Positions 13,566-60,542 of a stretch of DNA of 64,000 nt are shown piece by piece (the first letter of the stretch is position 1; every line of letters begins with the position of its first letter). This DNA is from an uncultured Opitutia bacterium (GTDB taxonomy: Bacteria > Verrucomicrobiota > Verrucomicrobiia > Opitutales > UBA953): contig CAISXT010000153.1 of NCBI GenBank assembly GCA_903889525.1, positions 2,340-66,339 on the forward strand. Direction: 5' to 3'. The notes beneath the pieces are model-generated. The model saw only the letters and a program-made list of their open reading frames with translations, did not search any database and was not told the origin of the DNA. A program made the translations under genes and the position numbers.

Positions 13566-16103
13566 TCAGTGGGGTTGGGAAAGGAAAGCTAGCAAATCGC
13601 GTAATTCGCTGTCGGTCAGGGTGAGAACGAGGCCTGGCGGCATCAGCGAGGTTTTGAGTTCTTCGTGGGAGAGTATTTCTTTCTTCCGGAAAGTGCGTTC
13701 CTTGCCTGCGATATCGCGGTAGGTCTCAACTTCTGATGAGCGCAGCAGGATGCCAACGAACGTTGTGCCGTCGGCGAGCTTGAGCTGCGTTGGGAAATAT
13801 TGCGGAGCGACTTCACGGCTCGGCTCGAGAATTGATTGCAAGATGCCGGCCCGGTCAGTCTGGCGGCTAATAAGCGTGAGGTCAGGGCCGACGACGTTGC
13901 CTCGGCCATCGTGACGGTGGCAGCTTGCGCACATCGCCAGTTTGGGGTGGGCGAACAGTCGACGACCCACTTCCAGATCGGGTTTACCGGGCAGGGCGTC
14001 GAGCCGGCGTAACCAGCTGATGGTATCCTTGAAATCAGGCCGACCCGCGTAGAGCGTGTTAGTATCTGTGAGTGCATTGACCAAGGGGAGTATTTCCGGA
14101 CTGGCGGATGCTAGACTCTTGAGCGCTTTAGTATCCGTCGCGCTGAGGCTGCTGAAGCGCAGAGCGCGGAGGGCTTCATCGCGGATTTGATGTTTAGCGT
14201 GAGCGGTCAAGGAAAGTAGCAAGACCGCGTGCTCAGGGCGATCGGAAGTCGAGATTCCCGCGATGGCATCGGCCCGCAGGGCGGCATCAGCCGATTCGTC
14301 GGCCGCAACTTTTGCGAGTAAAGCGTGGGCATCTGCTGAGTTCCGGCCGACGGCGCTCCGGACGGTTTCACGGGATAGTTCGGGATCACCGACAGCCAGA
14401 AGCTCGCGCATCAGATTTACCGTAAGCTGCTTGGAGACCTCGGGCATCAATCGGAGCGCATAACTGCGGATGCGCGGGGGTGCGGATGGGTTGACGATAT
14501 AGCTACCGAGCACTTGGGCATCAGTGACGCCGGCTTCAGGTTTGCCGAGAAGTGTGTTGCGGGCGGCGAGGGCTGCCTCAAACAGCCGGTAATCCAAGTC
14601 GGGTTGATGGAGCGTCTGTTCGACGTGGGGCAGAAAGGCGGTGAGGACGCCATCGGCGATCCAGCGCAGGCATTCAAAGCGTACTTCCACATCCTTGTCA
14701 TCAAGGAGGGCGCGTATCCAGCGGTCGTCAGCGATGTCGAGGCGTCTTAGGGCCACGAGCGTCCAGGCGCGATCTCCGGCGGACAAAGAACGCAGGTCAG
14801 CGGGTGGGCGCTGGGACCAGTTTCGGGCGAGGGCCGCCAAGGCGGAGTCGGCCAGAATGCGATCGGTGCCGCGGACGTGTTGGTGGAGTTCTGGATCGGC
14901 GAGATGGCTTTTACCTGACCGTAGCTCATCGGCGAGACGTGACGTTGCGTTCGGAGTGTCAATCGCGGGCTTCAGCCAGGCTGCCTTGCTTCGATCAATT
15001 TCCATCTTCCAAATCCGGCCTTTGCCGTGGATGGGATAGGAACTCCAGACCCAGTCATTGAAATAGAAGGCGCCGTCAGAACCGGCCGCTAGGCAGGTTG
15101 GCCGGAAGAACTCTCCACCCCGGATAAGGGTGATTTTCTTGGCTGTGTAGTCGGCGCCCTGGCGGGTGAGTGGATAATATTCCACGCAATGATCGCTCCA
15201 GGATGGGATGAGGACGCCTCCGCCGAGCTCGACGACGGAGCACGGGCCTTCGCCTGAGGGGCGAATCATGCCGAGCGTGCCGCGGAGTTCGCCATTCCAG
15301 GCCACGAAGGGGTGAATCGGCCCGGAGCCATAGACCCATTGGAAGCCGTAGTCGGCGCCTTCATGCACGCGGAGTAGGCGGCAGGGCGGGCGGCTGCCGG
15401 GGTCGTTATCCGCGGCGAAGATTTCGCCGTCGCTACGTACCATGATACCGAAGGGATTCCAGAATCCGCGGGCGATGCGCCGTAGACCAGTGCCGTCGGG
15501 ATGGCAGGTGAAGAAGCCGCCTTCGCCTCGTCCGTTAAGTTTCCGCTCATCGCGGCCTGAAAGCACCCAGTCCTTGCCGAAGTTCTCACCGAGTGAAAAC
15601 ACGAGGTCGCCGTTAAGCGCCCACGCTAAGCCGGATAGACCATTGTGCGGATAGTCTGTCACCGTCGCGAGCGTGGTGACGTTCTCTTCGACGTCGGCCT
15701 TCCCGTCGCCATCGGTATCCTTGAGGCGCAGAATTCGATTACGTTGGGAGACGTAGACCCAGCCGTCTTTCCCCAGTTTCAGATTCATCGTCTTATCGGT
15801 CTGGTTGTAAAAGACGCGGCGATTCTTGCCGGACTTGTCGAAGACCAGAATTTCGTCATGGGCCGGTCCGACGTAATCAGCCGGGCGAAAATGCGTATGC
15901 GAGGAGATCGTCCACAGGTTGCCTTGGGCGTCGACATCGAGTCCCGTCGGTGTAGCGATATCGGGATGTTCAATCAGCAGCGTGAGTTTTATGCCAGGCT
16001 GCAGAATCTGGATCTCTGAGGGCAGTGCCGTCGGCACAACCGGGGATTTCACCGGGTCAGCGGCCAGCGCCAACGCGGCGAAGAAGGGCAGGAGCAGGCG
16101 CAT
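13566..16103 (-). CDS. PVC-type heme-binding CxxCH protein (membrane-bound-dehydrogenase-like beta-propeller + HEAT repeats + C-terminal cytochrome c domain)
   Basis: Has a signal peptide, a propeller region containing DTDGDGKAD, a HEAT-like helical middle, and the C-terminal heme motif CASCHRHDGRGNVVGPDL. Confidence 0.8.
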   Translation of the reverse strand: MRLLLPFFAALALAADPVKSPVVPTALPSEIQILQPGIKLTLLIEHPDIATPTGLDVDAQGNLWTISSHTHFRPADYVGPAHDEILVFDKSGKNRRVFYNQTDKTMNLKLGKDGWVYVSQRNRILRLKDTDGDGKADVEENVTTLATVTDYPHNGLSGLAWALNGDLVFSLGENFGKDWVLSGRDERKLNGRGEGGFFTCHPDGTGLRRIARGFWNPFGIMVRSDGEIFAADNDPGSRPPCRLLRVHEGADYGFQWVYGSGPIHPFVAWNGELRGTLGMIRPSGEGPCSVVELGGGVLIPSWSDHCVEYYPLTRQGADYTAKKITLIRGGEFFRPTCLAAGSDGAFYFNDWVWSSYPIHGKGRIWKMEIDRSKAAWLKPAIDTPNATSRLADELRSGKSHLADPELHQHVRGTDRILADSALAALARNWSQRPPADLRSLSAGDRAWTLVALRRLDIADDRWIRALLDDKDVEVRFECLRWIADGVLTAFLPHVEQTLHQPDLDYRLFEAALAARNTLLGKPEAGVTDAQVLGSYIVNPSAPPRIRSYALRLMPEVSKQLTVNLMRELLAVGDPELSRETVRSAVGRNSADAHALLAKVAADESADAALRADAIAGISTSDRPEHAVLLLSLTAHAKHQIRDEALRALRFSSLSATDTKALKSLASASPEILPLVNALTDTNTLYAGRPDFKDTISWLRRLDALPGKPDLEVGRRLFAHPKLAMCASCHRHDGRGNVVGPDLTLISRQTDRAGILQSILEPSREVAPQYFPTQLKLADGTTFVGILLRSSEVETYRDIAGKERTFRKKEILSHEELKTSLMPPGLVLTLTDSELRDLLAFLSQPH

Positions 16104-16186: not shown

Positions 16187-17335
16187 ATGAAACGCCGTGA
16201 TTTCCTCACCGCCTCGGCGTTAGCCCTATCGGCTTCACTCCTTCGTGCTCAGACCGCCGAGCGTCCGCTCACGGTCGGCGTCATCGGTCATACTGGCCAA
16301 GGTAACTACGGGCATGGCGAAGACGCCGTCTGGCTGAAGATTCCGCAGACGAAAATCATCGCCGTCGCGGACGCCGATGCCAAGGGCCTGGGGCTTGAAG
16401 CCAAGAAGCTCGGGGTCGTAAAAGCCTATACCGATTACCGAGTCATGCTCGCTGAAGCCAAGCCGGATATCGTAGCCATCTGCACCCGGCATATCCATGA
16501 GCATCGCGACATGATCGTCGCGGCTATCGAAGCGGGCGTGAAGGGTGTTTACATTGAAAAACCTTTCGTGCGTACCTTGGTCGAGGCGGACGAGATTACG
16601 AAACTTTGCACAGATAAGGGCGTGCGCCTAGCCATCGCTCATCGCAATCGTTATCACCCTGTCCTCGATACCGTGAAGCAGCTTATCGCCGCCGGTGAAA
16701 TCGGCGCCCTCCAGGAAGTCCGCGTGCGCGGGAAGCAAGACCAGCGTGGGGGTGGCCTCGACCTCTGGGTGCTGGGTGGTCATGGCTTCAACCTCGCGAC
16801 CCTCTTCACCGGTCCGGCAATCTCGTGCGAGGCCACGATCCTCGTCGAAAGCCGTCCGGCGACAAAGGCAGATATTCATCCGGGTGACGAAGGCGTCGGT
16901 CCGATCGTCGGCGACGAAGTCCATGCCCGCTATGAGACCAAGAGTGGGATTCCGTTGTACTTCGATTCAAAGAAAGGGACTTGGAAGAGCGGCGTTCCAT
17001 TCGGGGCGCGCCTCATCGGGACCAAGGGTGTTATCTCCTTGCAGGTCGACGAGGAGCCTCTGGCGATCCTCGAGCGCGACGGAACCAAGATCCCGATTAC
17101 CACGGCAGGCATCGGGAAGCCGGAGCCCATCAAGGACATTAAGCTCGTCAACGCCGGCCACCATGGTGCCGTCCGTGATCTATTAGCCTCCATCGCCGAC
17201 AAGCGCGACCCTCTCTGCGGACCGGAGGCAGGCCGCGAGACCGTCGAACTGACCCAAGCGGTCTTCGCGTCGTTCGCTACCGGCGGGAAGAAGGTCACGC
17301 TCCCGTTGGTTGATCGACTGCATCCTTTGCGCTGA
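16187..17335 (+). CDS. Tat-exported Gfo/Idh/MocA family oxidoreductase
   Basis: Has a twin-arginine leader, MKRRDFLTASALALSASLL, and an N-terminal Rossmann segment, TVGVIGHTGQGNYG. The EKP motif (YIEKPF) is typical of Gfo/Idh/MocA enzymes. Confidence 0.8.
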   Translation: MKRRDFLTASALALSASLLRAQTAERPLTVGVIGHTGQGNYGHGEDAVWLKIPQTKIIAVADADAKGLGLEAKKLGVVKAYTDYRVMLAEAKPDIVAICTRHIHEHRDMIVAAIEAGVKGVYIEKPFVRTLVEADEITKLCTDKGVRLAIAHRNRYHPVLDTVKQLIAAGEIGALQEVRVRGKQDQRGGGLDLWVLGGHGFNLATLFTGPAISCEATILVESRPATKADIHPGDEGVGPIVGDEVHARYETKSGIPLYFDSKKGTWKSGVPFGARLIGTKGVISLQVDEEPLAILERDGTKIPITTAGIGKPEPIKDIKLVNAGHHGAVRDLLASIADKRDPLCGPEAGRETVELTQAVFASFATGGKKVTLPLVDRLHPLR

Positions 17336-17339: not shown

Positions 17340-18551
17340 TTAGCGGACCGTCGCCGCGCAGACCATCTCGAGGATGCGAGCGATGCTGTAGTTCTCGTTG
17401 AAGTTGTTCTTCGGGTGAGCAGGCGGGGTCGTATGCGTACCGAAATTATCTGGACCCTGGGGGAGGCGGGTCAGGTCAGGGTTCCATTGGCCATCGGGGC
17501 CGCCCATCTTGTAGATGACGAGGTCCAGGGAGGGCACGATGTAGAGACAGAAGCCGCCGGCTCCTGTTTTGTAAAAGGCGTCACGTGGGGCGCCGACGAT
17601 GTGGCCATCGGCGTTGTGTTCGAATTGCAAACTGAACGGTCCGTGGGGATTGTAGGGCAGCGGGGAGCGGCAGAGCTTGAGGTAGTCTGACGGGACGAGT
17701 TGGCGTCCTTCCCAGCGACCATCATGCGCGAGGCAATAGCCGAAACGGGCGGCATCGGTGGAATGGAGGGCAATACTACCCGCGCCGTTAGCGTGCTTCA
17801 TGGTGACATCGCCGCGGAAGAGACAGTAACCCCAGGAACCCCAACCCATGGGCTTAGCAAACTTCTCGCCGATATAGTCCTGAAGTTCTTGGCCAGTGAC
17901 GCGGCGCAGGACCATTGAAGCGATGTGCGGGGCCGGCGACGAGTAGGAGTAGCCTTCACCGGGGCCCGCCCAGAGCGGTGCCCGGAGCGAGGAGCCATCG
18001 ACATCGCGGATGTCCTGTCCTTTGCCCGACTTGAGCTGGCGGAACTCTCCTTGGACGACCGCGGAAGGTGTGGCGCCTTCGCCGTTGTGGCCCGAGGTCA
18101 TGCAGAGCAAGTGGCCGAGAGTGATGTCAGCCTCACGTGGATCGCGTAAGGGGAGGGCTTCGGGCAGGAACTCTTTTGTGTACACCTTGGTGTCGAGGCC
18201 ATGCGGAATCTTTACTTTAAATTCTTCCAGCATAACGCCGCAGGCGATGCTGGTGAACGCTTTGCCTGTGGAGGCCATGTCCGGATTGGCATGGCGATGG
18301 GCGAGACCGTAATATTTCTCCAGCACCAGGTAGCCTTTGCTAATCACCACGAGGCCGCCGTTCGGGGCGTTCGAAAACTCCGTGGCATGATAGGCTTGTT
18401 CCAGCCGGTCCAGGTCAACGCCAGCGAGCGCCCGGGCTTCGGTGGCATCCTTTGGTGTGCGCCAGCCGCCTTGCGCATCCGAGGGGGGGAAGTATTCGGC
18501 CGCGCTGGCGGCGAGGGCGAGGAACGGTAGCAATAAGGCGGCTGATTTCAT
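17340..18551 (-). CDS. Secreted serine hydrolase, beta-lactamase/class-C-like family
   Basis: Has a signal peptide and an S-x-x-K motif (ASTGKAFTS). Length is 403 aa. Confidence 0.7.
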   Translation of the reverse strand: MKSAALLLPFLALAASAAEYFPPSDAQGGWRTPKDATEARALAGVDLDRLEQAYHATEFSNAPNGGLVVISKGYLVLEKYYGLAHRHANPDMASTGKAFTSIACGVMLEEFKVKIPHGLDTKVYTKEFLPEALPLRDPREADITLGHLLCMTSGHNGEGATPSAVVQGEFRQLKSGKGQDIRDVDGSSLRAPLWAGPGEGYSYSSPAPHIASMVLRRVTGQELQDYIGEKFAKPMGWGSWGYCLFRGDVTMKHANGAGSIALHSTDAARFGYCLAHDGRWEGRQLVPSDYLKLCRSPLPYNPHGPFSLQFEHNADGHIVGAPRDAFYKTGAGGFCLYIVPSLDLVIYKMGGPDGQWNPDLTRLPQGPDNFGTHTTPPAHPKNNFNENYSIARILEMVCAATVR

Positions 18552-18655: not shown

Positions 18656-19954
18656 ATGAACCGACTCTTACCCCTCGTCGCTGCCCTCTGCTTGTCGTCG
18701 CTGGCGGCGCAGGTCGCCAAGCCTGAATCCCCGATTAAAATCACGGCCCGCGCCCAACGTGCGGATGCCGTTTATCATCAGGGCGAGAAGGTGGTCTTTG
18801 ATGTCAGTGTCACAGATGAGGGGCGACCAGCGAACGGCATGATTGAATGGGCCATCGTCAAGGACGGCTTGCCGACGGATCAGAAAGGTAAAGCCGAGCT
18901 CGCGAACGGCAAAGCCGTGGCCGAAGGCTCGTTGAAGGAGCCGGGGTTTATTCAGGTACGCGTCACCTATCGGCTGGGCACCGCGCCCAAATCACCCGTC
19001 TTTGTCGGACTCGGCGGTGCCGCGATCGACCCGACGGAGATTAAGCCCAGCCTGGCGGTCCCCGCTAATTTTGATGCCTTCTGGGCTAGTATGAAGAAAA
19101 AGTTGGCCGCCATCCCCGTCGATCCGAAGCTCGTCCCGGTCAAGTCGCCAGTCAAAGGCATTGAGTCATTCGACGTCACCGCTCCGGCGCTTGGCCTCCA
19201 GATTTCCGGTTACATGTCCAAGCCGATTGGGGCGAAGCCCAAGAGCCTGCCGATTATCCTGACCGTGCATGGCGCAGGGGTGAGCGATAGTTCGCTCGGT
19301 GGTTCCGCGGGTTGGGCGAGCCGGGGTTTTATCGCGATGGATATGAATGCACACGGGCTACCTAACGGTCAGCCGAAGCAGTTTTACACCGACCTGTATG
19401 CCGGCCCGATGAATCCCTATCGCTATGAACACCGCGACGATCCAGAGAAGGCCTATTTCACCGGCATGATGTTGCGCCTTATTCGGGGTATCGACGTCCT
19501 GACCGCCCAGCCAGAGTGGGATGGTAAGCGGGTGATTGTCTTCGGCGCTAGTCAGGGCGGCTACCAAGCCATTGCTGCGGCCGGCCTCGATGCCCGGGTC
19601 ACTTATTTTGTGGCCGGCGTCCCCGCCGGATGTGATCACAGCGGCATGATGGCTAATCGTGTCGCCGGCTGGCCGAAGATCGCACCGATGAAGGAAGGCA
19701 AACCGGACATGAGCGTCGTCGAGGCCTTCCGTTATATCGATTGTATGAACTTCGCGACGCGCACCAAGGCGGCGGGCTGCTATTTCACCGTCGGCTTCAT
19801 CGATACCGTCTGCCCACCCACGAGTGTCTACGCGGCCTATAACCAGCTCACCATCCCCAAGGAAATCTATAACGATATCCCCAGCGGCCATGCGAATTCT
19901 CCGCAGGCAAGCGAAGGCATGCGGCAGGCGGTCATGAAGTACGTTGGCAAATAG
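18656..19954 (+). CDS. Secreted acetylxylan esterase / cephalosporin-C deacetylase-like (CE7-like) with an N-terminal Ig-like extension
   Basis: Track ORF 18587..19954. I trimmed the start to the ATG at 18656, which gives the signal peptide MNRLLPLVAALCLSSLAAQ. The nucleophile elbow is GASQGG and there is a C-terminal His in PSGHAN. Confidence 0.7.
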   Translation: MNRLLPLVAALCLSSLAAQVAKPESPIKITARAQRADAVYHQGEKVVFDVSVTDEGRPANGMIEWAIVKDGLPTDQKGKAELANGKAVAEGSLKEPGFIQVRVTYRLGTAPKSPVFVGLGGAAIDPTEIKPSLAVPANFDAFWASMKKKLAAIPVDPKLVPVKSPVKGIESFDVTAPALGLQISGYMSKPIGAKPKSLPIILTVHGAGVSDSSLGGSAGWASRGFIAMDMNAHGLPNGQPKQFYTDLYAGPMNPYRYEHRDDPEKAYFTGMMLRLIRGIDVLTAQPEWDGKRVIVFGASQGGYQAIAAAGLDARVTYFVAGVPAGCDHSGMMANRVAGWPKIAPMKEGKPDMSVVEAFRYIDCMNFATRTKAAGCYFTVGFIDTVCPPTSVYAAYNQLTIPKEIYNDIPSGHANSPQASEGMRQAVMKYVGK

Positions 19955-20259: not shown

Positions 20260-23200
20260 ATGAGACTGCTTTGCGCCTTCCTGCTAACCTTGCTGGCTTT
20301 ACCGGCCGCCGAGCCGCTCTACGACCAGAAGAATCTAGCCGCGTGGTGTATTGTGCCGTTCGACAACCAGAAGCGCACGCCGGAGCAACGGGCTACGATG
20401 GTGGCGAAGATGGGCCTGACCAAGGTTGCCTACGATTGGCGGAGCGAACATGTCGCCGAGTTCGAACAGGAGATTCTCGCCTACCAGAAGAATGGCATCG
20501 AATACTTCGCTTTCTGGGCGCAGCACGACGAGGCCTTTCGTCTGTTCGAGAAGTACCAGCTCCACCCGCAAATCTGGGTAATCGCCGGCGTCAAGGGTGA
20601 CACCCAAGAAGCCAAGGTGAAGAACGCCGCGGAAGGGTTGCTGCCGACGATCGCTAAGACGGCGAAGATTGGGAGCAAGCTGGCGATTTATAATCACGGC
20701 GGTTGGTCCGGTGAGCCGGAGAACATGGTAGCCATCTGCGAATACCTAAAGAAGAACCACGGCGTCACCAACGTCGGCATTGTTTACAATCTGCACCACG
20801 GTCACAGCCATCTTGCCAGGTTAGACGAAGCGTTGAAGTTGATGCTCCCTCATCTGCTCTGTCTCAATATCAATGGCATGGACATCGAGGGAGACGCCAA
20901 GGGGCGCAAGATCCTGCCGGTCGGCGCGGGCACCCAAGACCTCAAGGTGCTGCGACAGGTCCGCGCCAGCGGTTACGCCGGTGTCATTGGCATTCTGAAT
21001 CATACCATGGAAGACGCCGAAGGCCGTCTGCTCGACAATCTGGACGGACTCAAGTGGCTCGTGCCGCAACTCGACGACGCGCCGACTGGCCCCAAGCCTA
21101 AGTATCGGACGTGGTCGGACAAATCCGTCATGAAGAAGACGGCCATCCCCTCAGGGCGACCCGCCGGGGTGCCTTCTGTCAGTTCTGAATTCGGGAAGGC
21201 TCTCGCGGGTGGCTGGGTCGTCGATGGCGGAGCTCAGTTTGAGCAATGGCCGCTCACCATTGAGTGTCTCGCCAAACTAAATTCCAAGAGTGGTTTCAAT
21301 ATCCTCGTTTCAAATAATGAAAAATCCGCCAGTACGCACTGGGAGGTCTATAGTTATGTCAAAACAGGTTACCTCAGTATCTACCTGCCAGGCTTCGGCG
21401 GTGAGTATCGTAGCGAGACGGATATTTGCGACGGCAAGTGGCACGACATTCTCGCCAGCGTCTCGGCGGAGAAAGTTCGCCTCTGGGTGGATGGTAAAAT
21501 GGTGCTCGAGCGGGCGACAGCCCCGGCGGGCCCTCTCCGCCCGCCACAGCAACATAAGCTCGGCTTTGGACAGTTGATTGATGCTTCTGTGGGCTGTGAC
21601 GGCATTATTGATGACGTCCGCATTTCGCGTGGAGCGAATGATCCCACGACTTGGATTAAGGGCCCGCGTAAGCGCATGGATATCTCCCTCGGTCTTTGGA
21701 ACTTTGATGACATCGATCAGATTACGGCCCGCCGGGCTGGACCCGCACCCGCGCCGTTCACTCCGGGGCTCGCGCCTTTACGACGGGAAGATAATATCAT
21801 CGCCGATCAATTCGTAAATCGCGACCGCGTGTTTGATTACTACGCCAAGGAGGCGATGGAGTTTATGGGACATCAGCCGGCACCGGTCATGCTTCCTTCC
21901 TATCCTGGCCTAGATGGAGGCAGTCAGGGGCATTGGGGCAATCAGAACGACGCGGTCACCTGGAAGGACGGACGCTGGGATAAGGCCGACCATGGGGTTC
22001 TGTTCAGCGGCGTCTTTCGTGGTGCCGGGCTGACGATTCCCAAGGCGGTTTGCGTACGCAAGGGTACTGAAGCCGCTTGCTTCGATCCACTCACGCTTTC
22101 TTTCCCGGTTCGCTGGACGGGTGACTTCATTAAACTTGGAGATGGCCGGCACGGCTTCGGGGGCGGTGCGAACATGGCCGGGAAGTTATCCCTGAAAACT
22201 TTAGCCGAAAAGCCTAAGGGTGATTGGAAATACCACGGCTTCTATCGCCACGGCGAACGGACGATTTTTGCCTATAACAAAGGCGGCAGCGAATACCTAG
22301 CCGATGCTTGGGAGGGTGAGCAGCCGGCGGAGAAACTGGCTGCCTTCACTAAGGGTGGCCCTGCACAGTGGCCCGCCTGGCTTGAAACGACAGGGAAATT
22401 GGGTACGCAGCAGCCCTTTGCCACGGATACGGTGCTGCCCCCGTTCAAGAATCCCTATGGGACGCTCTTCTTTATCACCGGGATCGACTTCTTTAAGGAT
22501 GGCACGGCGGCCGTCTGCACCATGACCGGTGAGGTTTGGTTGGTGAAGGGTCTGGACGCCCAGTTTGATCACGTGCGCTGGAAGCGTTTTGCCACCGGGC
22601 TGCACCACGCCCTCGGGGTCAAAATCATCGACGATAAGCTTTACGTGCTGGGGCGTGATCAGATTACCCGCTTGCATGACCTTAACGGGGATGGCGAAGC
22701 GGACTTCTACGAGTGTGTGAACAACGCGATGACCACTTCACCAGGCGGCCATGACTTCATCGTTGGCCTGGATGCAGATGCCCAGGGGCGATTCTACACC
22801 TCGTCGGGAAATCAAGGTGTCTTACGGCTTAGCGATTCCAATAAAGTAGAAGTGCTCGCCACTGGCTTACGTAATCCCAACGGGATCACCGTCACGCCGG
22901 ATGGCAAATTCATCCTTTCCAATGTGCAGGAAGGCAATTGGACGCCCGCTTCCGCGGTCTGTCAGGTGGAAGTGGGTCGCAATGAAGGCACGCACTTCGG
23001 TTCAGGTGGCCTCAAGCCATCTGGCATGAATACGTTACCGATTCTGCAGCTTCCGCGCGGGGAAGACAATTCCTGTGGTGGGCAGATTTTCCTCTCTGAG
23101 TCTGGCTGGTCGGGCTTAAAGGGTGATGGCAATTTCCTCCACTTCTCATTTGGCACTGGCAGCGCCTGGTTGGTTTCACGTCAGTTGCTCGAGGGCGTCT

Positions 23201-44374: not shown

Positions 44375-44376
44375 GA

Positions 44377-54500: not shown

Positions 54501-54813
54501 CGTTGGGCATCGGTTCGACGTCCTTCGTCTTGGCGTGGTTGATGGCGAGGATTAGGCGGCTGAGTTCAGGCTTCCCGGCAACGACGGCGGCACCGACTTC
54601 TCCGCCCTTGAGAATCAATTCGCGCGAGTCCAGGCGTAGTCCCGATTTCTGCTTTTTAGGGCCATGGCACTTAAAACAGTTATCGGCCAGTACCGGGCGT
54701 ACCTCCTTTTCAAAGAACTCGATCTGGGCGGCCGTGGGTGCGGGCGTGGTTTCCGCCCCCTTCCCTAGCAAAGGAAGGAGCAAAAGGGCGATGAGGGCAG
54801 GGCGGAAAGGCAT
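51589..54813 (-). CDS. PSCyt1 + DUF1549 + DUF1553 protein
   Basis: Signal peptide MPFRPALIALLLLPLLGKGA, with the motifs CFKCHGPKK, CARCHDHKFDPL and VMVNRVWTELIG. Confidence 0.85.
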   Translation of the reverse strand: MPFRPALIALLLLPLLGKGAETTPAPTAAQIEFFEKEVRPVLADNCFKCHGPKKQKSGLRLDSRELILKGGEVGAAVVAGKPELSRLILAINHAKTKDVEPMPNADDKISDKAIAALTEWVRMGLPWPTESSPVANDPRNHWAFQPVKNPPLPSIKNTAAVRQPLDRFVLAKLEANGLQASPEANRETLARRFTLALWGVNPSAPEVAAFVDDKDPAAAEKFVDRLMADQAFGERWGRHWLDVARYSDTKGYVFQEERRYPYAYTYRDWVVNAFNKDLPYDQFLRLQLAADKIVQGEDNRDLAALGYVTLGRRFINNQQDIIDDRIDVVMRGTQALTMACARCHDHKFDPLPTTEYYSLYSIFNSSEEPKELPALKPFTRTKETAEFETELGALQKKYDEFVTSRRELSFSAAKTADYLTLVLRSIKEPNFNFTQEAKRTNLYPTVLTGWQRILKAKLNDKDPVWGGWYQLRDVADDKFVGALAAQLAQPESLKDALLRAEIQKKAPKKFSELTACLAATLAEAHKPEKAALAEWKSWRALIEAPNGPTAVTADSLIPGYNIADRNTRTKLETEVMAFKATSPKSPPHAMALQDKAKPAQGVVFLRGSPSRPGKNVARQFLAILSDGPPKEFKEGSGRLELANAIASKTNPLTARVMVNRVWTELIGVPLVETPSDFGVRTAASKNPELLDHLATTFMADNWSMKKLIRTIVLSSTFRQSSELNPAGVAKDPDNLLAWRANRRRLDFEAMRDSILRVAGNLEIKTGGQPFDLVANFSTPRRTIYSFIDRQNLPAVFRTFDFANPDYHVPKRNQTTTPQQALWMLNHPFARTQADALASKVTTLANDEAKVAALYAAVLSRRPTSTETQLAVQYIRDAGQAPAPATWTYGVGGWDPATKQLKFTEMKFKIKEGFGPGDKMPNKEFGHAFLSAAGGHPGDRQDTAVVRRWTAGGGGKFRIESKLEVPSKSSDGVRGRIASSRAGLLLEAVAKGAGAATLNLEEIELAPGESINFVADNLIGSNSDGFKWSAVIKDAKSGEVIASGAADFGKKTDPQSAWSTFAQVLLESNEFIFAD

Positions 54814-54966
54814 GCTTGGGAAGTGGAACAGTCAGGGGGGCAGAATGTTCCTAAAAGGTGCTGGGCATCAGGGGGATGTAAAGCCGGGGATGCATAATAA
54901 CGTCTGATGTCTATTTTTCTTCCAACCGAAGCGTAAATGCAGTGTCTCAATGCCATACCCCGTCCT

Positions 54967-57900
54967 ATGAGCACGTCCTCCGTCCGTATCTTCCGCTTGG
55001 CTGCCACCCTGGTGGCCATGACTTTACCATTCCCGAGCTTCGCCGCTCCCAAACCTGTCGCCCAGTCGGCTGACTTGCGTGCGCGCGACAAGGTTCGGAT
55101 TGTCGATCTATCCGCTGACCTCACAGGGGCGAAAGAACTCTTCCTGGTTGTCAATGATCTGGGTGAGCAAGCCTTCGATTGGTCCGACTGGCTTGAGCCA
55201 GTGTTGGTGATGGCCGATGGTTCGACGAAGGACCTGACGACCCTGAAGTGGAAGCTCGCTGAATCGGCCGCTGGTGCCGTGAGTGTTGGGAAGAATTATG
55301 CCAAGCGACCCCTCGTTGTGGCGGGTAAGACTTACGCCAATGGCATCGGTACGCATGCCAACTCCGTGATCGGTTACGATCTCCCTGCGGGAGTCGTCGG
55401 CTTCCGGGCCAAGGTTGCCATCGATGACGGTGGGGCATTTCAAGGCGGCAAAACCACGACTGCGGACGTCCGTTTTCTCGTCTACACCGAAGCCCCGGCC
55501 GCCCAGAAGTTGGCCGATTTCGATACTGGCCCCAAGCTCGTTCCGCCTGAACTCTTCACGGTGCCGGCCGGTTTTGAAGTGACGGTCTGGGCTACCTCCC
55601 CGCAGATTTTCAACCCGACGAACATCGATTTCGATGAACGCGGCCGGATGTATGTGGCCGAAGGCGTTAATTACCGTGGCAAGAAGGGGCGTCGCAAGGA
55701 AGGCGATCGGATCGTCACCCTCGAGGATACGACGGGCGCCGGTAAGGCCGACAAGGTCACGGTCTTTATTCAGGATACAAATCTCGAATCACCGCTCGGG
55801 GTGGCTCACATCGATGGCAAAATCGTCGTCTCGATGCCGCCCGACCTGATCGTCTATACCGACGTCAATCACAACGGCGTCTTTGACCCGGCCGTCGATA
55901 AGCGCGAAGTCCTGCTCACGGGCTTTAATGGCCGCCAGCATGACCACAGTCTCCATAGCGTGACTTTCGGTCCGGACGGTAAGTGGAACTTCAACCAAGG
56001 TAACACGGGGGCCAATTTTGTCGATAAGACTGGCCGTCACTTCACCATGGGCAGCCCTTACATGCTGCAGGATATCGCGGGTCGTCGTAGCGACGACGGC
56101 AATGTGTGGATTGGTGGCTTCTCCGTGCGCATGAACAGCGACGGCTCCGACCTCAAGATCGTCGGCCACAATTATCGCAACAGCTTCGAGCAGTCCATCA
56201 ACTCGTTCGGTGATATGTACCAGAGCGATAACGATGACCCGCCCGCTTGCCGCGTCTCCCTGATTATGGAAGGTGGTAACGCCGGGTTCGCTTCGCTCGA
56301 CGGCAAGCGCTCCTGGGGCGCCGATAAACGTCCCGGTCAGGATACCCCCACCGCCGAATGGCGTCAGGAAGATCCGAACACTATGCCTGCCGGCGATGTC
56401 TACGGCGGCGGTTCCCCGACCGGGGTCGCGTTCTACGAGAACGGCGCGTTGGGTGATAAGTGGAACGGTTTGCTGCTCGCCTGTGAGGCCGGCAAGAATG
56501 TCGTTTTTGGTTACCTTCCTAAGCCTGACGGCGCGGGGATGAAGCTCGAACGCTTCGACTTCTTTACCTCAAATAAGGAGAAGGAGTGGGCAGGTTCCGA
56601 CTTCCTCGGTGGCAAGCCGACCGGCGTGTTGAAGACGATGTTCCGTCCGAGCGATGTAACCGTCGGTCCCGATGGGGCTATCTATGTGGCCGATTGGTTC
56701 GACCCCGGTGTGGGCGGCCACGGTACCCGCGATAACGGTGCCTCCGGTACGATTTATCGCATCGCCCCCAAGGGATTTAAGTCGGTGATGCCCAAGATCG
56801 ACCTGACGACAGTCGAGGGCCAGCTCGCCGCACTTCGTAATCCTGCCCCGAATGTTCGCGCAGGTGGCTTTAATCGTCTCAAGGCTCAGGGTGACAAGGT
56901 GGTCGAGCCGGTTGCGGCCCTGTTGAGCGATGCTAATCCTTATGTGGCTTCGCGTGCCCTCTGGCTCCTTGCTCAGTTAGGAGACAAGGGTGCGGCCATC
57001 GTTCAGAAGGAACTGCGTTCCTCGGATGATAACCGTCGTCTCGTCGCCTATCGCGCTTTGCGCGCCGCAGGTCGCGATGTCTTTGCTTTGGCCAAGGCTT
57101 CCGCTGAAGACACCTCTCCAGCGGTGCGCCGCGAGGTCGCTATCACCTTGCGCGAATTCAAGACGCCCGAGGCGGTGGCCCTGCTGGTGAAGATCGCCAA
57201 GTTGTACGACGGCAAGGATCGTGCCTACCTCGAAGCCATCGGTCTTGCTTCGACCGACCGCGAAGCCGAAGTCCACGCCGCCATTGCCAAAGAGATGTCG
57301 TCCGCGGCGATGTCTTGGTCGCCCGCCTATGCTGGGCTGACCTGGCGCCTGCACCCCGCTAGCGCCGTGCGCGACCTGCGGACGCGCCTGCTTTCGGGCA
57401 AGCTCGCAGAAGTTGAACTGAAGCGCGACCTCACGACGTTGGCCTTTACGCCGAGCCTCGAAGCTGCTGGCACGATGGTCGAGCTCTCGCTGAACAAGGC
57501 TTTTGCCCAGGTTGAGCTGGCCAAATGGTGGGTCGGTAATCGTAAGAGCAATCTGTGGAAGCCGTTCGACGTCGATGCGATCGTGAAGGCGCGTGGCGGT
57601 GACGCCTCGGCCGCCAAGCTCGTCGGCTCTGATCTTCCGCCTGAACCGGCGGGCACGAAGCCGTTGGCCTCAGTCGAGGTTATCGCCGCGCTCAAGGGTG
57701 ACGTCGCCAAGGGTAAGGGTACCTCGGCGGTCTGTCAGGCTTGCCACAAGTTCGACGGCAAGGGCATCGATTTCGGTCCGGACCTCACGACCTACGCCAA
57801 ACAGCAGTCGCTCGAGACCCTCGTGCTCAACATCTCGCAGCCGTCCAACAACATCTCGCACGGCTTCGAAGGAACGCGTGTGGTGCTCGATGACGGTATG

Positions 57901-58098
57901 GTCATCACTGGCATGGTCTTGTCGTCGGGCGATCCGCTGATGATCAAGTCCATGGGCGGCCTTGTGCAATCCATCCCGCGCAATCGCGTTAAGGAAGAGA
58001 AGTCGCTCGACCGCTCGCTCATGTTCACGCCCGCTCAGATGGGCCTCAACGAACAGGGTGTCGCTGATATCGCTGCATATTTAAGGAGCCTCCGATAA
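54967..58098 (+). CDS. NPCBM carbohydrate-binding module + PVC-type heme-binding CxxCH dehydrogenase-like propeller + HEAT repeats + cytochrome c domain
   Basis: Start is ATG 54967 (MSTSSVRIFRLAATLVAMTLPFPSFAAP); an alternative ATG lies at 54937. The NPCBM-like segment is FLVVNDLGEQAFDWSDWLEP ... YANGIGTHANSVIGYDL. The C-terminal heme motif is CQACHKFDGKGIDFGPDL. It is paralogous to 13566..16103. Confidence 0.8.
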   Translation: MSTSSVRIFRLAATLVAMTLPFPSFAAPKPVAQSADLRARDKVRIVDLSADLTGAKELFLVVNDLGEQAFDWSDWLEPVLVMADGSTKDLTTLKWKLAESAAGAVSVGKNYAKRPLVVAGKTYANGIGTHANSVIGYDLPAGVVGFRAKVAIDDGGAFQGGKTTTADVRFLVYTEAPAAQKLADFDTGPKLVPPELFTVPAGFEVTVWATSPQIFNPTNIDFDERGRMYVAEGVNYRGKKGRRKEGDRIVTLEDTTGAGKADKVTVFIQDTNLESPLGVAHIDGKIVVSMPPDLIVYTDVNHNGVFDPAVDKREVLLTGFNGRQHDHSLHSVTFGPDGKWNFNQGNTGANFVDKTGRHFTMGSPYMLQDIAGRRSDDGNVWIGGFSVRMNSDGSDLKIVGHNYRNSFEQSINSFGDMYQSDNDDPPACRVSLIMEGGNAGFASLDGKRSWGADKRPGQDTPTAEWRQEDPNTMPAGDVYGGGSPTGVAFYENGALGDKWNGLLLACEAGKNVVFGYLPKPDGAGMKLERFDFFTSNKEKEWAGSDFLGGKPTGVLKTMFRPSDVTVGPDGAIYVADWFDPGVGGHGTRDNGASGTIYRIAPKGFKSVMPKIDLTTVEGQLAALRNPAPNVRAGGFNRLKAQGDKVVEPVAALLSDANPYVASRALWLLAQLGDKGAAIVQKELRSSDDNRRLVAYRALRAAGRDVFALAKASAEDTSPAVRREVAITLREFKTPEAVALLVKIAKLYDGKDRAYLEAIGLASTDREAEVHAAIAKEMSSAAMSWSPAYAGLTWRLHPASAVRDLRTRLLSGKLAEVELKRDLTTLAFTPSLEAAGTMVELSLNKAFAQVELAKWWVGNRKSNLWKPFDVDAIVKARGGDASAAKLVGSDLPPEPAGTKPLASVEVIAALKGDVAKGKGTSAVCQACHKFDGKGIDFGPDLTTYAKQQSLETLVLNISQPSNNISHGFEGTRVVLDDGMVITGMVLSSGDPLMIKSMGGLVQSIPRNRVKEEKSLDRSLMFTPAQMGLNEQGVADIAAYLRSLR

Positions 58099-58134: not shown

Positions 58135-58177
58135 AAGGGCTGGGGTCTGCGGACTCCGGCCCTTTTCTTTGATTTTT
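58135..58177 (+). terminator. Rho-independent terminator
   Basis: The stem AAGGGCTGG ... CCGGCCCTT (9 bp including one G-U pair) is followed by TTTTCTTTGATTTTT, 37 nt after the stop at 58098. Confidence 0.7.
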
Positions 58178-58235
58178 GTATGGGGTCAGACCGCTTCTGA
58201 TCGATATCACTCGGAAGCGGTCTGACCCCATACAA
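58176..58235. repeat. Perfect 22-bp inverted repeat with a 16-nt spacer
   Basis: TTGTATGGGGTCAGACCGCTTC (58176-58197), then the spacer TGATCGATATCACTCG, then GAAGCGGTCTGACCCCATACAA (58214-58235). I checked this base by base. It lies 30 nt upstream of the ATG at 58266. Confidence 0.9.
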
Positions 58236-58265
58236 TATTCTGTCCCTAACCCTGTCTTTGTCCCT

Positions 58266-60542
58266 ATGAATTCATTCATGCGTTCGTCCCTCGTCGCCTT
58301 GTTCCTGTCGGCTGGCCTGCTTTTCGGGCAGGCGAAGAAGCCGGCTAAGAAGGGCGCGCCCGCTGTCGCCGAGGCGCCTGGTCAGTGGATTCTCGGTACC
58401 ATCGGCGTCGGTAAGCAGAAGGACGGCTCGATTGATTCAACAGGGTTGAAGGGCCTCGCCGTCCGCTTGGGTGATGATGGCAAGAAGGGTCTCGCCTATG
58501 ATTTGGACCTTTGTCGCCCCATTGGCGCCTGGGCTGGTAGGTTTACCACCGAGATGAATCTGATGTCCCGCGGAGATTATCCGACGGCCATCGGCGAGGC
58601 GATTTTTGTGACGGGTGATGTTGCGGGATTCGAGCCCGACGCCGCTGCGATTGCCTTATCGGTGCGTAAGGGCTATGGTCCTTCGCCCGCCGGTATGGCC
58701 CGCTTCACGGGCTTTCATAATGCAGGTCGGCAGGTCGTCGTACAGTGGAAGGTTGGTGGCGTTAGGGTAGATGAAACCGCGGAAGTGATCACCGCTAATG
58801 AGGTTCAGTTTGTCGTACGGACGCTTGAGATTGCCCCGTCTGCGAAAGGACTGACGGTGATGCTAGGCAAATCAGCCGACGCCGCCCGGATTGTCACGAC
58901 GGGCGCCTCCAAGGTTGATCAACTTGAAGGGCATGCCGTCGCTCGCATTGCTGGCTCTGGTGAAATCACCACGGTGCGAATCGCTTATCTGCCCGCGGGT
59001 GTCCCGCTGCCGCAGTCTTTCGAAACCGAACTGCCGTCGAAACTGCTCAAGAGCACTAAGCAGCTCTGGCCCGAGACGGTTGAGACCGCGGGGGAACTTT
59101 CCACCAAACAAGGCGAAGCCTATGTGGTGGATAAGATTAAACTGCCTGAAGCGAACCCATGGAAGGCGCCGATGTTTACCTCGGGCTTCGATTTCCTGCC
59201 CGATGGCCGTGCGGTCATCTGCACATTTCATGGCGATGTCTTCATCGCTTCAGGGGTTGATGCCCGGCTGGCGAACGTCACCTGGCGTCGGTTTGCCGCT
59301 GGTCTTTATCATCCGCTCGGGCTGAAGGTCGTGAGGGGTGAAATCTACGTTACTTGCCGCGATGGCATCTGGAAACTCCGTGACACCGATGGCGACGGCG
59401 AGTGCGACACTTACGAAGCCTTTAACTTCGATGTGATGGTGACAAAGAACTTCCACGAGTTCGTCTTCGATCTGCAGACCGACCCAGCAGGAAATTTCTA
59501 TTTCATCAAGGCCGGACCTGTCCGTAAAGGTGGCCGAGGCTTTGATGAAATCTGCGACCACCATGGATCGCTCTTCAAAGTCTCGCCCGACGGGAAGAAG
59601 CTAGAAGTCATCGCCACGGGCTTCCGTGCACCCAATGGCATTGGGGTTAGTCCCACAGGCCAAATCACCACAGGGGATAATGAAGGTACTTGGACCCCCG
59701 TCTGCCGTCTTAATTGGGTGCAGCCAGGCGGCTTCTATGGGGTGCCCCCGCTGGCGCATCGTGCTACCGAGCCGGCGGACTACGACCGCCCGCTTTGCTG
59801 GTTCCCGAAGGATGTCGATAATTCCAGCGGCGGACAGGTGTGGGTGACCTCGGATAAGTGGGGCCCTTGGAAGAATCGCCTGCTCCACCTTAGCTATGGC
59901 ACTTGTTCGTTGTATGGCGTGTTGCCGCAGGAGGTCACCTTCAAGGGCCAGCCTCAGATGCAGGGTGGGGTGGTCCGCTTCAATGTGAACTTTGATAGCG
60001 GTGCCATGCGTGCCCGCTTTAATCCGCTCGATGGTCAGCTCTACGTGACTGGGTTGCGCGGCTGGCAGACCACGGCGACGCATAATGGATGCTTCCAGCG
60101 CGTACGTTGCACTGGCGATGCGGTGCGCTTGCCGTTAAATATGAAGGCCACCGCCAAGGGGGTGCGGATTGAATTCGATTGCGCCTTGGATGCTCGGCTC
60201 GCCCTCGATGCTGGTAATTGGAACATTGAAGCTTGGAACTATGTCTGGTCGTCTGCCTACGGCTCGCCTGACATCTCCACGCTCGAGCAGAAGGTGGCCG
60301 CCAGTGAGCTGGGCAATGATGGCAAGATGCAGTTCAGCAAGGAGCAGATGGCGGAGCGCAAGCACGACCCTCTGAACGTCAAGTCGGTGACTCTCTCCGC
60401 GGATGGACGCTCCGTCTTCCTCGAGATCCCCGACCTGCGTCCCGCGATGCAGATGAGGATTAAGTATGACCTGAAGTCAGCCGATGGCGTTGAGCTGCGC
60501 GGACAGATTATCAACACCATCCACGCGCTTCCGGAGGCTTAG
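58266..60542 (+). CDS. Secreted beta-propeller protein, paralogous to the central part of 20260..24201 (no TIM barrel, LamG or cupredoxin module)
   Basis: Track ORF 58176..60542 starts at a TTG inside the inverted repeat. I prefer ATG 58266 (signal peptide MNSFMRSSLVALFLSAGLLFGQ). Shared blocks include FDFLPDGRAVICTFHGDVF against IDFFKDGTAAVCTMTGEVW, DTDGDGECDTYE against LNGDGEADFYE, and SVFLEIPDL against AIFLEIPQL. Confidence 0.75.
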   Translation: MNSFMRSSLVALFLSAGLLFGQAKKPAKKGAPAVAEAPGQWILGTIGVGKQKDGSIDSTGLKGLAVRLGDDGKKGLAYDLDLCRPIGAWAGRFTTEMNLMSRGDYPTAIGEAIFVTGDVAGFEPDAAAIALSVRKGYGPSPAGMARFTGFHNAGRQVVVQWKVGGVRVDETAEVITANEVQFVVRTLEIAPSAKGLTVMLGKSADAARIVTTGASKVDQLEGHAVARIAGSGEITTVRIAYLPAGVPLPQSFETELPSKLLKSTKQLWPETVETAGELSTKQGEAYVVDKIKLPEANPWKAPMFTSGFDFLPDGRAVICTFHGDVFIASGVDARLANVTWRRFAAGLYHPLGLKVVRGEIYVTCRDGIWKLRDTDGDGECDTYEAFNFDVMVTKNFHEFVFDLQTDPAGNFYFIKAGPVRKGGRGFDEICDHHGSLFKVSPDGKKLEVIATGFRAPNGIGVSPTGQITTGDNEGTWTPVCRLNWVQPGGFYGVPPLAHRATEPADYDRPLCWFPKDVDNSSGGQVWVTSDKWGPWKNRLLHLSYGTCSLYGVLPQEVTFKGQPQMQGGVVRFNVNFDSGAMRARFNPLDGQLYVTGLRGWQTTATHNGCFQRVRCTGDAVRLPLNMKATAKGVRIEFDCALDARLALDAGNWNIEAWNYVWSSAYGSPDISTLEQKVAASELGNDGKMQFSKEQMAERKHDPLNVKSVTLSADGRSVFLEIPDLRPAMQMRIKYDLKSADGVELRGQIINTIHALPEA

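Follow-up and report, generated by a model that had tools for sequence, protein, structure and literature searches.

Does a chromosomal region crowded with exported oxidoreductases, glycan-processing domains and electron carriers encode one pathway, or has it been put together from parts with separate histories? This question is raised by positions 13566-60542 of a 64,000-nucleotide stretch (the window) of a contig from an uncultured Opitutia bacterium (GCA_903889525.1, CAISXT010000153.1), which is freshwater Opitutales chromosome and matches a 442-kb lake-metagenome scaffold. A first-pass annotation had read the interval as a single periplasmic system in which Gfo/Idh/MocA (Gfo) and FAD oxidoreductases, a triosephosphate isomerase (TIM) barrel and DUF1080 domains cleave sulfated or acetylated glycans by a 3-keto route, with electrons leaving through cytochrome c and cupredoxin modules rather than NAD. 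We find that the 47 kb is at least five separately inherited modules and not one pathway. Our preferred explanation is that a glycan-utilisation island has been assembled here as a mosaic: periplasmic modules for sugar processing, each with its own inheritance, that have predicted built-in electron carriers. We would give it about an even chance of being right. The best evidence for a cytochrome-wired 3-keto route points to a candidate gene cluster, centred on a GMC flavoprotein, that begins where the window ends.

Thirty-seven genes were called from the list of open reading frames (ORFs); all were scanned against Pfam and the key ones against NCBIfam, while N-termini, twin-arginine motifs and CxxCH motifs were taken directly from the translations. 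The domains and protein types named in the first-pass annotation were recovered in place, to within a few codons, by Pfam, NCBIfam and motif searches, and the exported redox-fusion proteins among them are real and conserved, while four PSCyt/DUF1501 pairs and a set of housekeeping genes had been missed. Co-conservation was tested with three anchors: the Gfo protein on genome contigs, a 1313-residue fusion protein, and a PF12831 protein on metagenome contigs. Gfo orthologues (71-90% identity) were drawn from 48 genome assemblies, most of which carry the label Opitutae, Opitutales or Verrucomicrobiota. Related loci are labelled L008, L142, L139, L137, L140, L141, L006 and so on, L139 being the same scaffold as the window. 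L008 and L142 count here as a single lineage; treating them as two independent ones was dropped, as they are 86-93% identical to each other at the nucleotide level.

The interval changes strand at least eight times. Module A (a sulfatase, an acetylesterase, a BNR_2 protein, a Gfo exported by twin-arginine translocation (Tat) and the 1313-residue TIM/propeller/azurin protein) is co-conserved down to about 60% identity. Module B is a lineage-specific insertion with the first of two haem propellers, C is housekeeping, D is a ten-gene array and E is the second haem propeller. The families of the proposed route are scattered over this mosaic. The Gfo lies at 16.2 kb and the TIM domain at 20.3 kb; DUF1080 is encoded on the opposite strand at 40.9-42.9 kb, beyond the housekeeping genes, 24 kb from the Gfo and in the separately conserved array. 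Gene-neighbourhood conservation holds for module A and for the array, each kept as a block, and fails for the interval as a whole. One integrated 47-kb pathway is not borne out, as its pieces have been gained and lost independently, the first haem propeller accompanying the Gfo in 3 of 29 loci and other neighbours surrounding the TIM-cupredoxin orthologues of Verrucomicrobiales and most orthologues of the PF12831 protein.

The cluster that best fits the 3-keto route comprises four co-directional genes (window-equivalent 62536-70804) for an esterase, a GMC flavoprotein, a Tat-exported small subunit and a 1208-residue fusion. The exported esterase-like protein (S9/PHB-depolymerase-like; 62536-64000, forward strand) runs off the window, and the other three genes occupy L139:1554-7791, which corresponds to window positions 64567-70804. 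The GMC flavoprotein (L139:6016-7791) has GMC_oxred_N and GMC_oxred_C domains, starts with MPIITEKDL and has no signal peptide. It matches the alpha subunit of FAD-dependent glucose dehydrogenase (FAD-GDH; 6a2u_B; full length, E = 6e-39) and the large subunit of fructose dehydrogenase (7w2j), with E values for the two of about 1e-38 to 1e-36, and it carries a Cx5Cx3C motif. The small subunit (L139:5336-6016) matches Gluconate_2-dh3 (PF13618, 73 bits) and the TAT_signal model and has an RRQALK motif. The fusion is exported by the general secretory (Sec) route and consists of DUF1080, a GDSL esterase, a TIGR02604 propeller, HEAT repeats and a cytochrome c domain with a single CxxCH at residue 1099. 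The L139 locus holds no separate multi-haem cytochrome subunit, and the role of that subunit appears to have been taken by a haem protein of the Planctomycetes-Verrucomicrobia-Chlamydiae (PVC) type that also carries DUF1080. The GMC protein and its small subunit, like DUF1501 and PSCyt, matched no NCBIfam equivalog. The order esterase, GMC protein, small subunit is kept in the relatives L140 and L141, both of which end inside the small-subunit gene.

DUF1080 is also joined to haem propellers elsewhere. Among nine long DUF1080 relatives, three carry DUF1080 at the C-terminus of a propeller/NPCBM/HEAT/cytochrome c protein, the opposite domain order to the 1208-residue fusion, and at least seven related genomes have a haem propeller gene followed after 2 nt by a DUF1080 gene. 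Such repeated fusion and adjacency speak for the periplasmic wired 3-keto route of the first-pass annotation as far as DUF1080 is concerned; the Gfo/TIM module, in contrast, is tied to an aldarate operon. One propeller-DUF1080 pair is found at L010:487-4210 (reverse strand; a 1015-residue propeller and a 224-residue DUF1080 protein) and others in L011, L022, L027, L028, L031 and L035. In relatives the pair stands just upstream of the BNR_2/Gfo region, where it is missing in the window.

The best-conserved links inside the window belong to module A, which opens with an exported sulfatase (2068-3606, forward; Pfam Sulfatase 183 bits, Sec signal) whose orthologue holds the same position in L008 and L142 at 64-66% identity. 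An exported sialidase-like BNR_2 propeller (8848-9900, forward; 294 bits) and a 730-residue exported esterase-like protein (9900-12092, forward; DLH/AXE1-like with a faint glucuronoyl-esterase match) follow, the latter with a 52% identical orthologue in L008 and L142. In most of the 48 related loci the gene upstream of the Gfo encodes BNR_2, as a rule in fusion with FG-GAP repeats and abutting the Gfo gene. Downstream of the Gfo, and convergent with it, lies an exported beta-lactamase-fold protein (17340-18551, reverse; Pfam Beta-lactamase 76 bits; a possible esterase), which is kept in close relatives. An AXE1-type acetyl esterase (18656-19954, forward; 125 bits) precedes the 1313-residue fusion, as it does directly in L142; in L008 it is one AraC gene upstream of the fusion.

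At about 60% identity, L008 and L142 carry a co-directional string with overlapping stops and genes, divergent from GudD-MFS-KdgD (MFS, major facilitator superfamily) and ordered sulfatase, AXE1, (AraC), fusion, BNR_2, metallophosphoesterase, esterase-like, sulfatase, BNR_2, FG-GAP, Gfo. Nine genes of this string have orthologues inside the window or just upstream of it, which is why we regard the Gfo and the 1313-residue fusion as truly co-conserved with the sulfatase and esterases. The claim that sulfatases and esterases are interleaved with the redox genes thus holds, and in this second lineage they are co-operonic with both the Gfo and the TIM-cupredoxin protein. Among the 17 loci with enough flank, the TIM-cupredoxin protein is within 10 kb of the Gfo in 10. 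An exported protein at 6274-7758 gave a weak match to the neutral-ceramidase N-terminal domain, and its 60% identical orthologue in Prosthecobacter (L006:22443-23900) adjoins a DUF6797-propeller-cytochrome c gene.

The Gfo itself (16187-17335, forward; Pfam N and C domains) starts with MKRRDFLTASALALSASLLRAQ and has a textbook Tat signal with the twin-arginine motif RRDFL. It had been proposed as a glycoside 3-dehydrogenase, an assignment that its scores do not support: 44 bits against a cut-off of 750 for the BT_2158 glycoside 3-dehydrogenase model (NF058561) and 20 bits against 650 for NF058563. Matches to solved structures and NCBIfam equivalogs cover a generic N-terminal Rossmann domain and assign no substrate, and on these profile comparisons the protein is a predicted generic Tat-Gfo.

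The 1313-residue fusion (20260-24201, forward) is made up of a xylose-isomerase-like TIM barrel, LamG, DUF6797, a TIGR02604-like propeller and an azurin-like type-1 copper domain, an architecture kept in full in at least 120 protein clusters at 56-79% identity. The TIM barrel named in the first-pass annotation is upheld by structure prediction and falls short in sequence: AP_endonuc_2 scores 25.8, under the Pfam cut-off of 31.1, while an AlphaFold model of residues 18-300 is a TIM barrel with a predicted local distance difference test score (pLDDT) of 90. Its best Foldseek matches are UlaE, the 3-keto-glucoside 4-epimerase YcjR and ketose 3-epimerases (template modelling (TM) score about 0.64, 9-16% identity); a profile search against Protein Data Bank (PDB) sequences gave a spurious TAL-effector match and a weak xylose-isomerase-domain match only. 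The cupredoxin scores 37 bits against Copper-bind (cut-off 21), and all four type-1 ligands align with azurin H46, C112, H117 and M121. These ligands (His, Cys, His, Met) are invariant in nine orthologues, a profile of which matches auracyanin A at E = 1e-17, so on alignment it is predicted to be a complete type-1 blue copper domain of the azurin/auracyanin kind. The propeller is below the TIGR02604 cut-off (23 bits against 122), has no haem motif and gave no sequence match to soluble glucose/sorbosone dehydrogenase (GSDH). For the propeller and cupredoxin modelled together the top Foldseek matches are global mismatches (TM 0.1-0.2), and the usable ones are the per-domain matches to 2ism and auracyanin only.

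In two Verrucomicrobiales loci the neighbours of the fusion orthologue are quite different from those in the window. In Prosthecobacter it stands near genes that, from their Pfam list, look like an oxidative sugar-acid pathway. In the same region a ThuA-family gene directly adjoins a DUF6797-propeller-cytochrome c gene (L006:19011-22235) near the TIM-cupredoxin orthologue, and there are oxidative deoxy-sugar-like genes (aldo-keto reductase, FAA hydrolase, short-chain dehydrogenase/reductase and amidohydrolase). Between the fusion and the next PSCyt2/DUF1501 pair of the window, positions 24202-25749 hold two genes, of about 144 codons and of 358 codons with a signal peptide; the latter had no Pfam or NCBIfam match and is 95% identical in L013 and L014. 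A paralogue of the middle part of the fusion (34% identity over 485 residues) is encoded at 58176-60542 (forward); by Pfam it is a DUF6797-propeller protein lacking a haem or copper domain, and it is below the TIGR02604 cut-off (50 bits) with no haem motif.

What module A might oxidise is suggested by the divergent operon beside it, which lies back-to-back with the module A sulfatase, ends in an aldehyde dehydrogenase gene (379-2010, reverse; Pfam Aldedh) and continues upstream of the window (L138:4721-9901). It encodes GudD, an MFS transporter, KdgD and the aldehyde dehydrogenase. The glucarate dehydratase GudD scores 818 bits against TIGR03247 (cut-off 829, E = 1e-246), KdgD is above its equivalog cut-off (TIGR03249, 420 bits against 374), the transporter is of the galactonate/aldarate-type subfamily and the best NCBIfam match of the aldehyde dehydrogenase, below cut-off, is the alpha-ketoglutaric semialdehyde dehydrogenase (KGSADH) GucD. 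From these assignments the set is a predicted glucarate/galactarate pathway that would run from aldarate to 2-oxoglutarate, and in the L008/L142 lineage (about 60% identical) the genes for GudD, MFS and KdgD are again divergent and in the same place. Because this conserved neighbour would import and burn aldaric acids, C1 oxidation of uronates is the simplest chemistry for module A, and the 2ism match of the fusion propeller agrees weakly with it. C1 oxidation of uronates or other aldoses is therefore offered tentatively, as a possibility worth ranking first; C3 (3-keto) oxidation is unlikely, and we keep it in view because the TIM domain resembles a 3-keto-glucoside epimerase.

Both haem propellers pass the TIGR02604 and TIGR02603 cut-offs and have one CxxCH each. 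The first (13566-16103, reverse; Sec signal) is a PVC-type haem-binding protein with propeller, HEAT and cytochrome c domains, scoring 178 bits for TIGR02604 (cut-off 122) and 105 bits for TIGR02603 (cut-off 68), with its CxxCH at residue 725. Among loci with at least 3 kb of upstream sequence, an orthologue stands beside the Gfo in 3 of 29; for this reason we consider it a lineage-specific insertion and not a conserved partner of the Gfo, and a partnership through the shared 83-bp divergent region was rejected. A Tat-exported DMFA2_C-like protein (12102-13559, reverse; Pfam DMFA2_C 284 bits, SRREFIRSS) is encoded 7 nt downstream of it and is absent from all 40 related Gfo loci examined. DMFA2_C is the C-terminal domain of N,N-dimethylformamidase. 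The second PVC-type haem-binding protein (54937-58098, forward) adds NPCBM in front of propeller, HEAT and cytochrome c. Its ORF starts at 54937 and not at 54967 as annotated before, its scores are 453 bits (TIGR02604) and 124 bits (TIGR02603) and its CxxCH is at residue 933. Its haem domain is homologous to a dihaem cytochrome c of an anammox planctomycete (7zs0), which has been crystallised and is a bona fide high-potential cytochrome c (PMC11791136). The homologue list of this protein is saturated by relatives at least 71% identical, so it shows no distant contexts.

Four PSCyt/DUF1501 pairs (25858-29324, 36164-40800, 42935-47529 and 50150-54813) take up about one third of the interval. In all four a PSCyt2 and PSD1 gene directly precedes a Tat-exported DUF1501 gene, with overlaps of 1-46 nt and an RR motif in every DUF1501 protein; two CxxCH motifs occur in each of three PSCyt proteins. 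The remaining one (25858-29324, forward) is PSCyt2-PSD1 with one CxxCH and no PSCyt1, in a pair that is retained in relatives. The other three belong to the array, whose order is PSCyt, DUF1501, esterase, PF12831, PSCyt, DUF1501, DUF1080, double DUF1080, PSCyt, DUF1501, all on the reverse strand. In relatives the array is conserved as a block (proteins 70-93% identical) while the flanks differ. Its first pair (50150-54813) has 1-nt overlaps, and the exported BD-FAE/carboxylesterase (49305-50150) has a start that overlaps the upstream DUF1501 stop by 1 nt and a 2-nt gap to the PF12831 gene. The second pair (42935-47529) is followed by an exported single-domain DUF1080 protein (42203-42856; PF06439 117 bits), of a family with 4870 clusters at 50% identity, and an exported protein with two DUF1080 domains (ORF 40867-42243, with a likely start that gives 40867-42159, about 430 residues; PF06439 268 bits in two stretches). 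Orthologues of the latter (431 residues, 71-91% identity) occur in at least 120 clusters, a list again saturated by relatives at least 71% identical, with no distant contexts. The third pair (36164-40800; PSCyt1-PSCyt2-PSD1, CxxCH at 53 and 339, Tat motif SRRTFIK, 4-nt overlap) completes the array. Beyond it an exported sulfatase (34611-36080, forward; Pfam Sulfatase 172 bits, active-site motif CSPTR) has an 80% identical orthologue in L137. At L137:20484-21296 a GSDH and cytochrome c protein, a haem-wired propeller of a different family, adjoins the conserved array.

The FAD oxidoreductase of the first-pass annotation is there as a Sec-exported protein with a PF12831 FAD_oxidored domain (47596-49302, reverse; 364 bits). 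PF12831 is its only family match: it lacks GMC domains, a sequence search against the PDB returned nothing, and it is not of the GMC type that includes the known FAD glycoside 3-dehydrogenases. Its candidacy as a flavoprotein 3-dehydrogenase was rejected on family and on neighbourhoods. At least 592 relatives were found; the best 80 are 65-99% identical, and almost all of the 76 more distant of these (65-72%) are without PSCyt, DUF1501 or DUF1080 neighbours, with about five loci repeating PSCyt-DUF1501-PF12831. These 65-72% identical orthologues come from metagenomes of soil, sea and fresh water, frequently as tandem copies. In relatives (L137:2490-4574; L140:2183-4267) the protein is about 125 residues longer and has a Golvesin_C domain.

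How might such a mosaic work? We propose that periplasmic oligosaccharides would lose their acetyl and sulfate groups to esterases and sulfatases, that exported dehydrogenases loaded with their cofactors would then oxidise the sugars, and that covalently attached cytochrome c or azurin-like domains would pass the electrons on to the aerobic respiratory chain, while TIM-barrel and DUF1080 domains would act on the sugars once oxidised. Different modules probably carry out different chemistry. Module A would most plausibly oxidise uronates or other aldoses at C1, with the cell importing the resulting sugar acids, and the units that contain DUF1080 would most plausibly run a 3-keto glycoside route, clearest in the GMC cluster. 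A fused single-haem domain would stand in for the separate cytochrome subunit of enzymes of the LacABC or FAD-GDH type, and the three PSCyt/DUF1501 pairs that travel with DUF1080 genes are a known PVC gene pair. Proteins expected to take haem c or copper (or possibly pyrroloquinoline quinone, PQQ) in the periplasm have Sec signals, while Tat signals are found on the NAD-dependent Gfo, the DUF1501 proteins and the GMC small subunit. The route of export thus matches the cofactor, which fits real cofactor sites, with the PF12831 protein as the exception.

Several observations weigh against this explanation. The GMC cluster was found in three closely related genomes only, and the fusion gene in L139 only. 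The model of the fusion propeller and cupredoxin has a pLDDT of 65, and the best single-domain fold match of that propeller, the glucose-dehydrogenase-like 2ism, is weak (TM 0.55-0.58). For a flavoenzyme, the Sec signal of the PF12831 protein is out of the ordinary, and the protein may not function as one. Conservation was tested mostly inside one order. Lastly, the only characterised protein of the TIGR02604-HEAT-cytochrome c type, Lac161_ORF7, releases glucose from lactose without an added electron acceptor (PMC5342196), which suggests hydrolysis rather than oxidation.

That last point is the core of the rival that survives best, which is nonetheless unlikely: the propeller, DUF1080 and Gfo proteins would be unconventional glycoside hydrolases or lyases, as classed by Naumoff and Dedysh, for instance with the propeller acting like a beta-galactosidase, DUF1080 like an endo-xanthanase/lichenase and the Gfo in GH4/GH109 style through an internal NAD cycle, and the haem and copper would have some role other than taking electrons from the substrate. 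Lac161_ORF7 shares the architecture of both haem propellers and cleaves lactose with a Km of 1.8 mM (PMC5342196), THTE_1561, a DUF1080 protein of a planctomycete, has been catalogued as an endo-xanthanase/lichenase (PMC9007349), TIGR02604, DUF1080 and Gfo are listed as putative glycoside hydrolase families (PMC7397252) and the periplasmic Gfo proteins of the AL/BT pathway recycle bound NAD internally (bioRxiv 10.1101/2024.03.25.586180). However, orthologues at 56-86% identity retain the CxxCH and the four copper ligands without exception, a constancy that is not easily accounted for if these sites have no redox role; the haem domain of the second propeller has a high-potential cytochrome c as its homologue (PMC11791136); and the 1208-residue fusion adjoins a GMC protein and small subunit that have no cytochrome subunit of their own.

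The reading with which we began, that the whole 47 kb is one periplasmic 3-keto pathway in which the Gfo and the FAD protein oxidise C3, TIM and DUF1080 domains cleave and cytochrome c and cupredoxin replace NAD, is improbable. All of its component types are present, the Gfo and TIM-cupredoxin protein are co-conserved in a second lineage, the fold neighbours of the TIM domain include YcjR and DUF1080-cytochrome fusions exist. Against it stand the housekeeping genes and strand switches that break the interval, the rarity of a haem propeller beside the Gfo, the score of the Gfo against the BT_2158 model, a PF12831 protein that is not GMC and whose orthologues are mostly without these neighbours, the distance of DUF1080 from the Gfo in its own array, and an aldarate catabolism operon as the conserved partner of module A.

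Would such families come together by chance? With uniform random placement and the counts of a published planctomycete (20 TIGR02604, 17 DUF1080 and 33 Gfo; PMC7397252), the chance of a window like this is about 3e-9 per window, under counts that are assumed and are not those of this genome; clustering becomes likely only at about 50 copies per family in 3 Mb, and none of these families occurs in the 20 kb that precede the window. We consider the clustering probably real. It is the least probable of the rivals that families hugely expanded in PVC genomes merely cluster with exported enzymes and have no specific functional meaning here, as the high family counts just given, the high coding densities of PSCyt genes in epilimnion Verrucomicrobia (PMC5615132), the DUF1501, PSCyt, Gfo and esterase genes at unrelated anchor loci and the many neighbours that vary between relatives might suggest, for that reading leaves the density, the empty upstream 20 kb, the block conservation of module A and the array with their overlapping genes, and the domain fusions of DUF1080 with haem propellers to be explained.

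The glycan-utilisation mosaic also allows a broader reading, which we regard as rather doubtful: PVC propellers with haem c or type-1 copper would be the missing electron-accepting partners, processing keto- or acid-sugars, of exported dehydrogenases (the GMC protein and small subunit, the Tat-Gfo, or the propeller itself), so that periplasmic oxidation of glycosides and uronates would feed respiration directly in aerobic Verrucomicrobia and Planctomycetes. On that reading the cells would have an energy-conserving alternative to hydrolytic glycosidases, and the finding of He et al. (2017) that PSCyt gene density is inverse to glycoside hydrolase density in oxic lake water would be explained (PMC5615132).

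The remaining features concern the frame of the modules. The housekeeping interruption (30402-34569) consists by Pfam of a flavin reductase (30402-30887), an arginine decarboxylase (30972-32921) and a methyltransferase (33661-34569), and the same genes flank the array in a relative. Two ORFs, 32337-33761 (forward, 474 codons) and 34914-36122 (reverse, 402 codons), overlap, on the opposite strand, the arginine decarboxylase and the sulfatase respectively and had no match in the Pfam scan; they are probably not genes, consistent with the high G+C. Promoter and terminator scans did no better than on shuffled sequence, with one intergenic hairpin in the array only, a terminator-like one at 42916-42897, 3' of the DUF1501 gene of the second pair. 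In L140 (15523-16674) and L141 (15577-16728) a regulator with a periplasmic-binding domain and of AraC type stands between the DUF6797-propeller gene and ABC-F; the window has a 4-nt gap there (60542-60546) and no gene.

In lakes, oceans and soil alike, PVC bacteria play a major part in degrading sulfated and complex polysaccharides, and hundreds of their exported haem- or copper-fused proteins have no assigned function. If these proteins do link the degradation of glycans to respiration, some of the carbon flux credited to hydrolases would instead pass through oxidative routes, and the supply of oxygen would decide which glycans are used. He et al. (2017) reported that PSCyt genes neighbour sulfatases and carry carbohydrate-binding modules, and proposed a non-hydrolytic carbohydrate role for PVC cytochrome c proteins (PMC5615132). 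The GMC protein, small subunit and DUF1080-propeller-cytochrome c protein make a concrete three-protein test system, as does the 1313-residue protein beside the aldarate operon. Should the idea fail, what is left is a further glycan-utilisation island in a verrucomicrobium.

Our literature search found no description of a GMC protein and small subunit with a DUF1080-propeller-cytochrome c protein, of a TIM-LamG-propeller-azurin protein tied to an aldarate operon, or of the ten-gene PSCyt/DUF1501/DUF1080 array. The first-pass annotation was aware of no characterised wired version, whereas LacABC and ThuAB are cytochrome c-dependent periplasmic 3-ketoglycoside dehydrogenases, LacABC being a lactose 3-dehydrogenase that is encoded next to DUF1080 and works together with it (PMC8121099, PMC9007349). 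DUF1080 proteins act specifically on 3-keto glycosides (PMC8121099; bioRxiv 10.1101/2024.03.25.586180), and an earlier suggestion is that cytochromes re-oxidise the Gfo enzymes of the periplasm (bioRxiv 10.1101/2024.03.25.586180). The BT2156-BT2159/AL1-AL4 systems of Bacteroides and Alistipes resemble the window in having a Tat-Gfo, a xylose-isomerase-like TIM barrel and DUF1080, all periplasmic (PMC8121099; bioRxiv 10.1101/2024.03.25.586180). They differ in that the three families of the window are not adjacent and share no operon, that the window Gfo is far below the BT_2158/BT_2159 cut-offs, that the window TIM barrel is a domain of a 1313-residue protein and that the known pathway is redox-neutral through bound NAD.

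Among PVC families, both window propellers have the propeller-HEAT-cytochrome c order of the haem-binding CxxCH proteins and Lac161_ORF7 (PMC5342196). Lac161_ORF7, however, is reported as a beta-galactosidase, while the window proteins add NPCBM or adjoin a DMFA2_C-like protein, and the 1313-residue protein swaps haem for copper and adds TIM and LamG. The four PSCyt/DUF1501 pairs are like those of Planctomycetes and Verrucomicrobia, with Tat-DUF1501 downstream and sulfatases nearby (PMC5615132); here three of them are interleaved with an esterase, PF12831 and three DUF1080 domains.

For module A the likeness is to the oxidative uronate/aldarate pathway (Udh, GudD, KdgD, KGSADH), since GudD, MFS, KdgD and a KGSADH-like aldehyde dehydrogenase are its neighbours. 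Known uronate dehydrogenase is cytoplasmic and NAD-linked, and to our knowledge a periplasmic copper-wired one has not been described. The weak 2ism match, from the propeller model of moderate confidence, may hint at a likeness to periplasmic PQQ aldose dehydrogenases. Nitrous oxide reductase is also among the fold matches of the fusion and likewise places a cupredoxin after a beta-propeller; in contrast, the fusion has a mononuclear type-1 site with one Cys and not CuA, the TM score is 0.11-0.21 and there is no sign of CuZ.

The GMC cluster has the closest counterparts. It resembles the gamma-alpha-beta FAD-GDH of Burkholderia cepacia (6a2u) in full-length catalytic homology, a Tat small subunit and a catalytic subunit without a signal peptide, and the large subunit of Gluconobacter fructose dehydrogenase (7w2j) is homologous to its GMC protein; it lacks the multi-haem membrane cytochrome subunit of FAD-GDH. 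The cysteine cluster of the GMC protein sits, we presume, where the 3Fe-4S site of FAD-GDH lies, with a spacing of Cx5Cx3C against what we take to be Cx4Cx3C in FAD-GDH. The Caulobacter LacABC and the Agrobacterium-type glucoside 3-dehydrogenase presumably each combine a GMC flavoprotein with a Tat small subunit and a cytochrome c subunit. The L139 cluster, almost wholly outside the window, has a GMC protein, a small subunit, a haem c domain and DUF1080, with the difference that its cytochrome is a single-haem domain at the end of a 1208-residue DUF1080-GDSL-propeller-HEAT protein. It looks like a fused PVC variant of the cytochrome-dependent periplasmic 3-keto glycoside dehydrogenases, a type already characterised.

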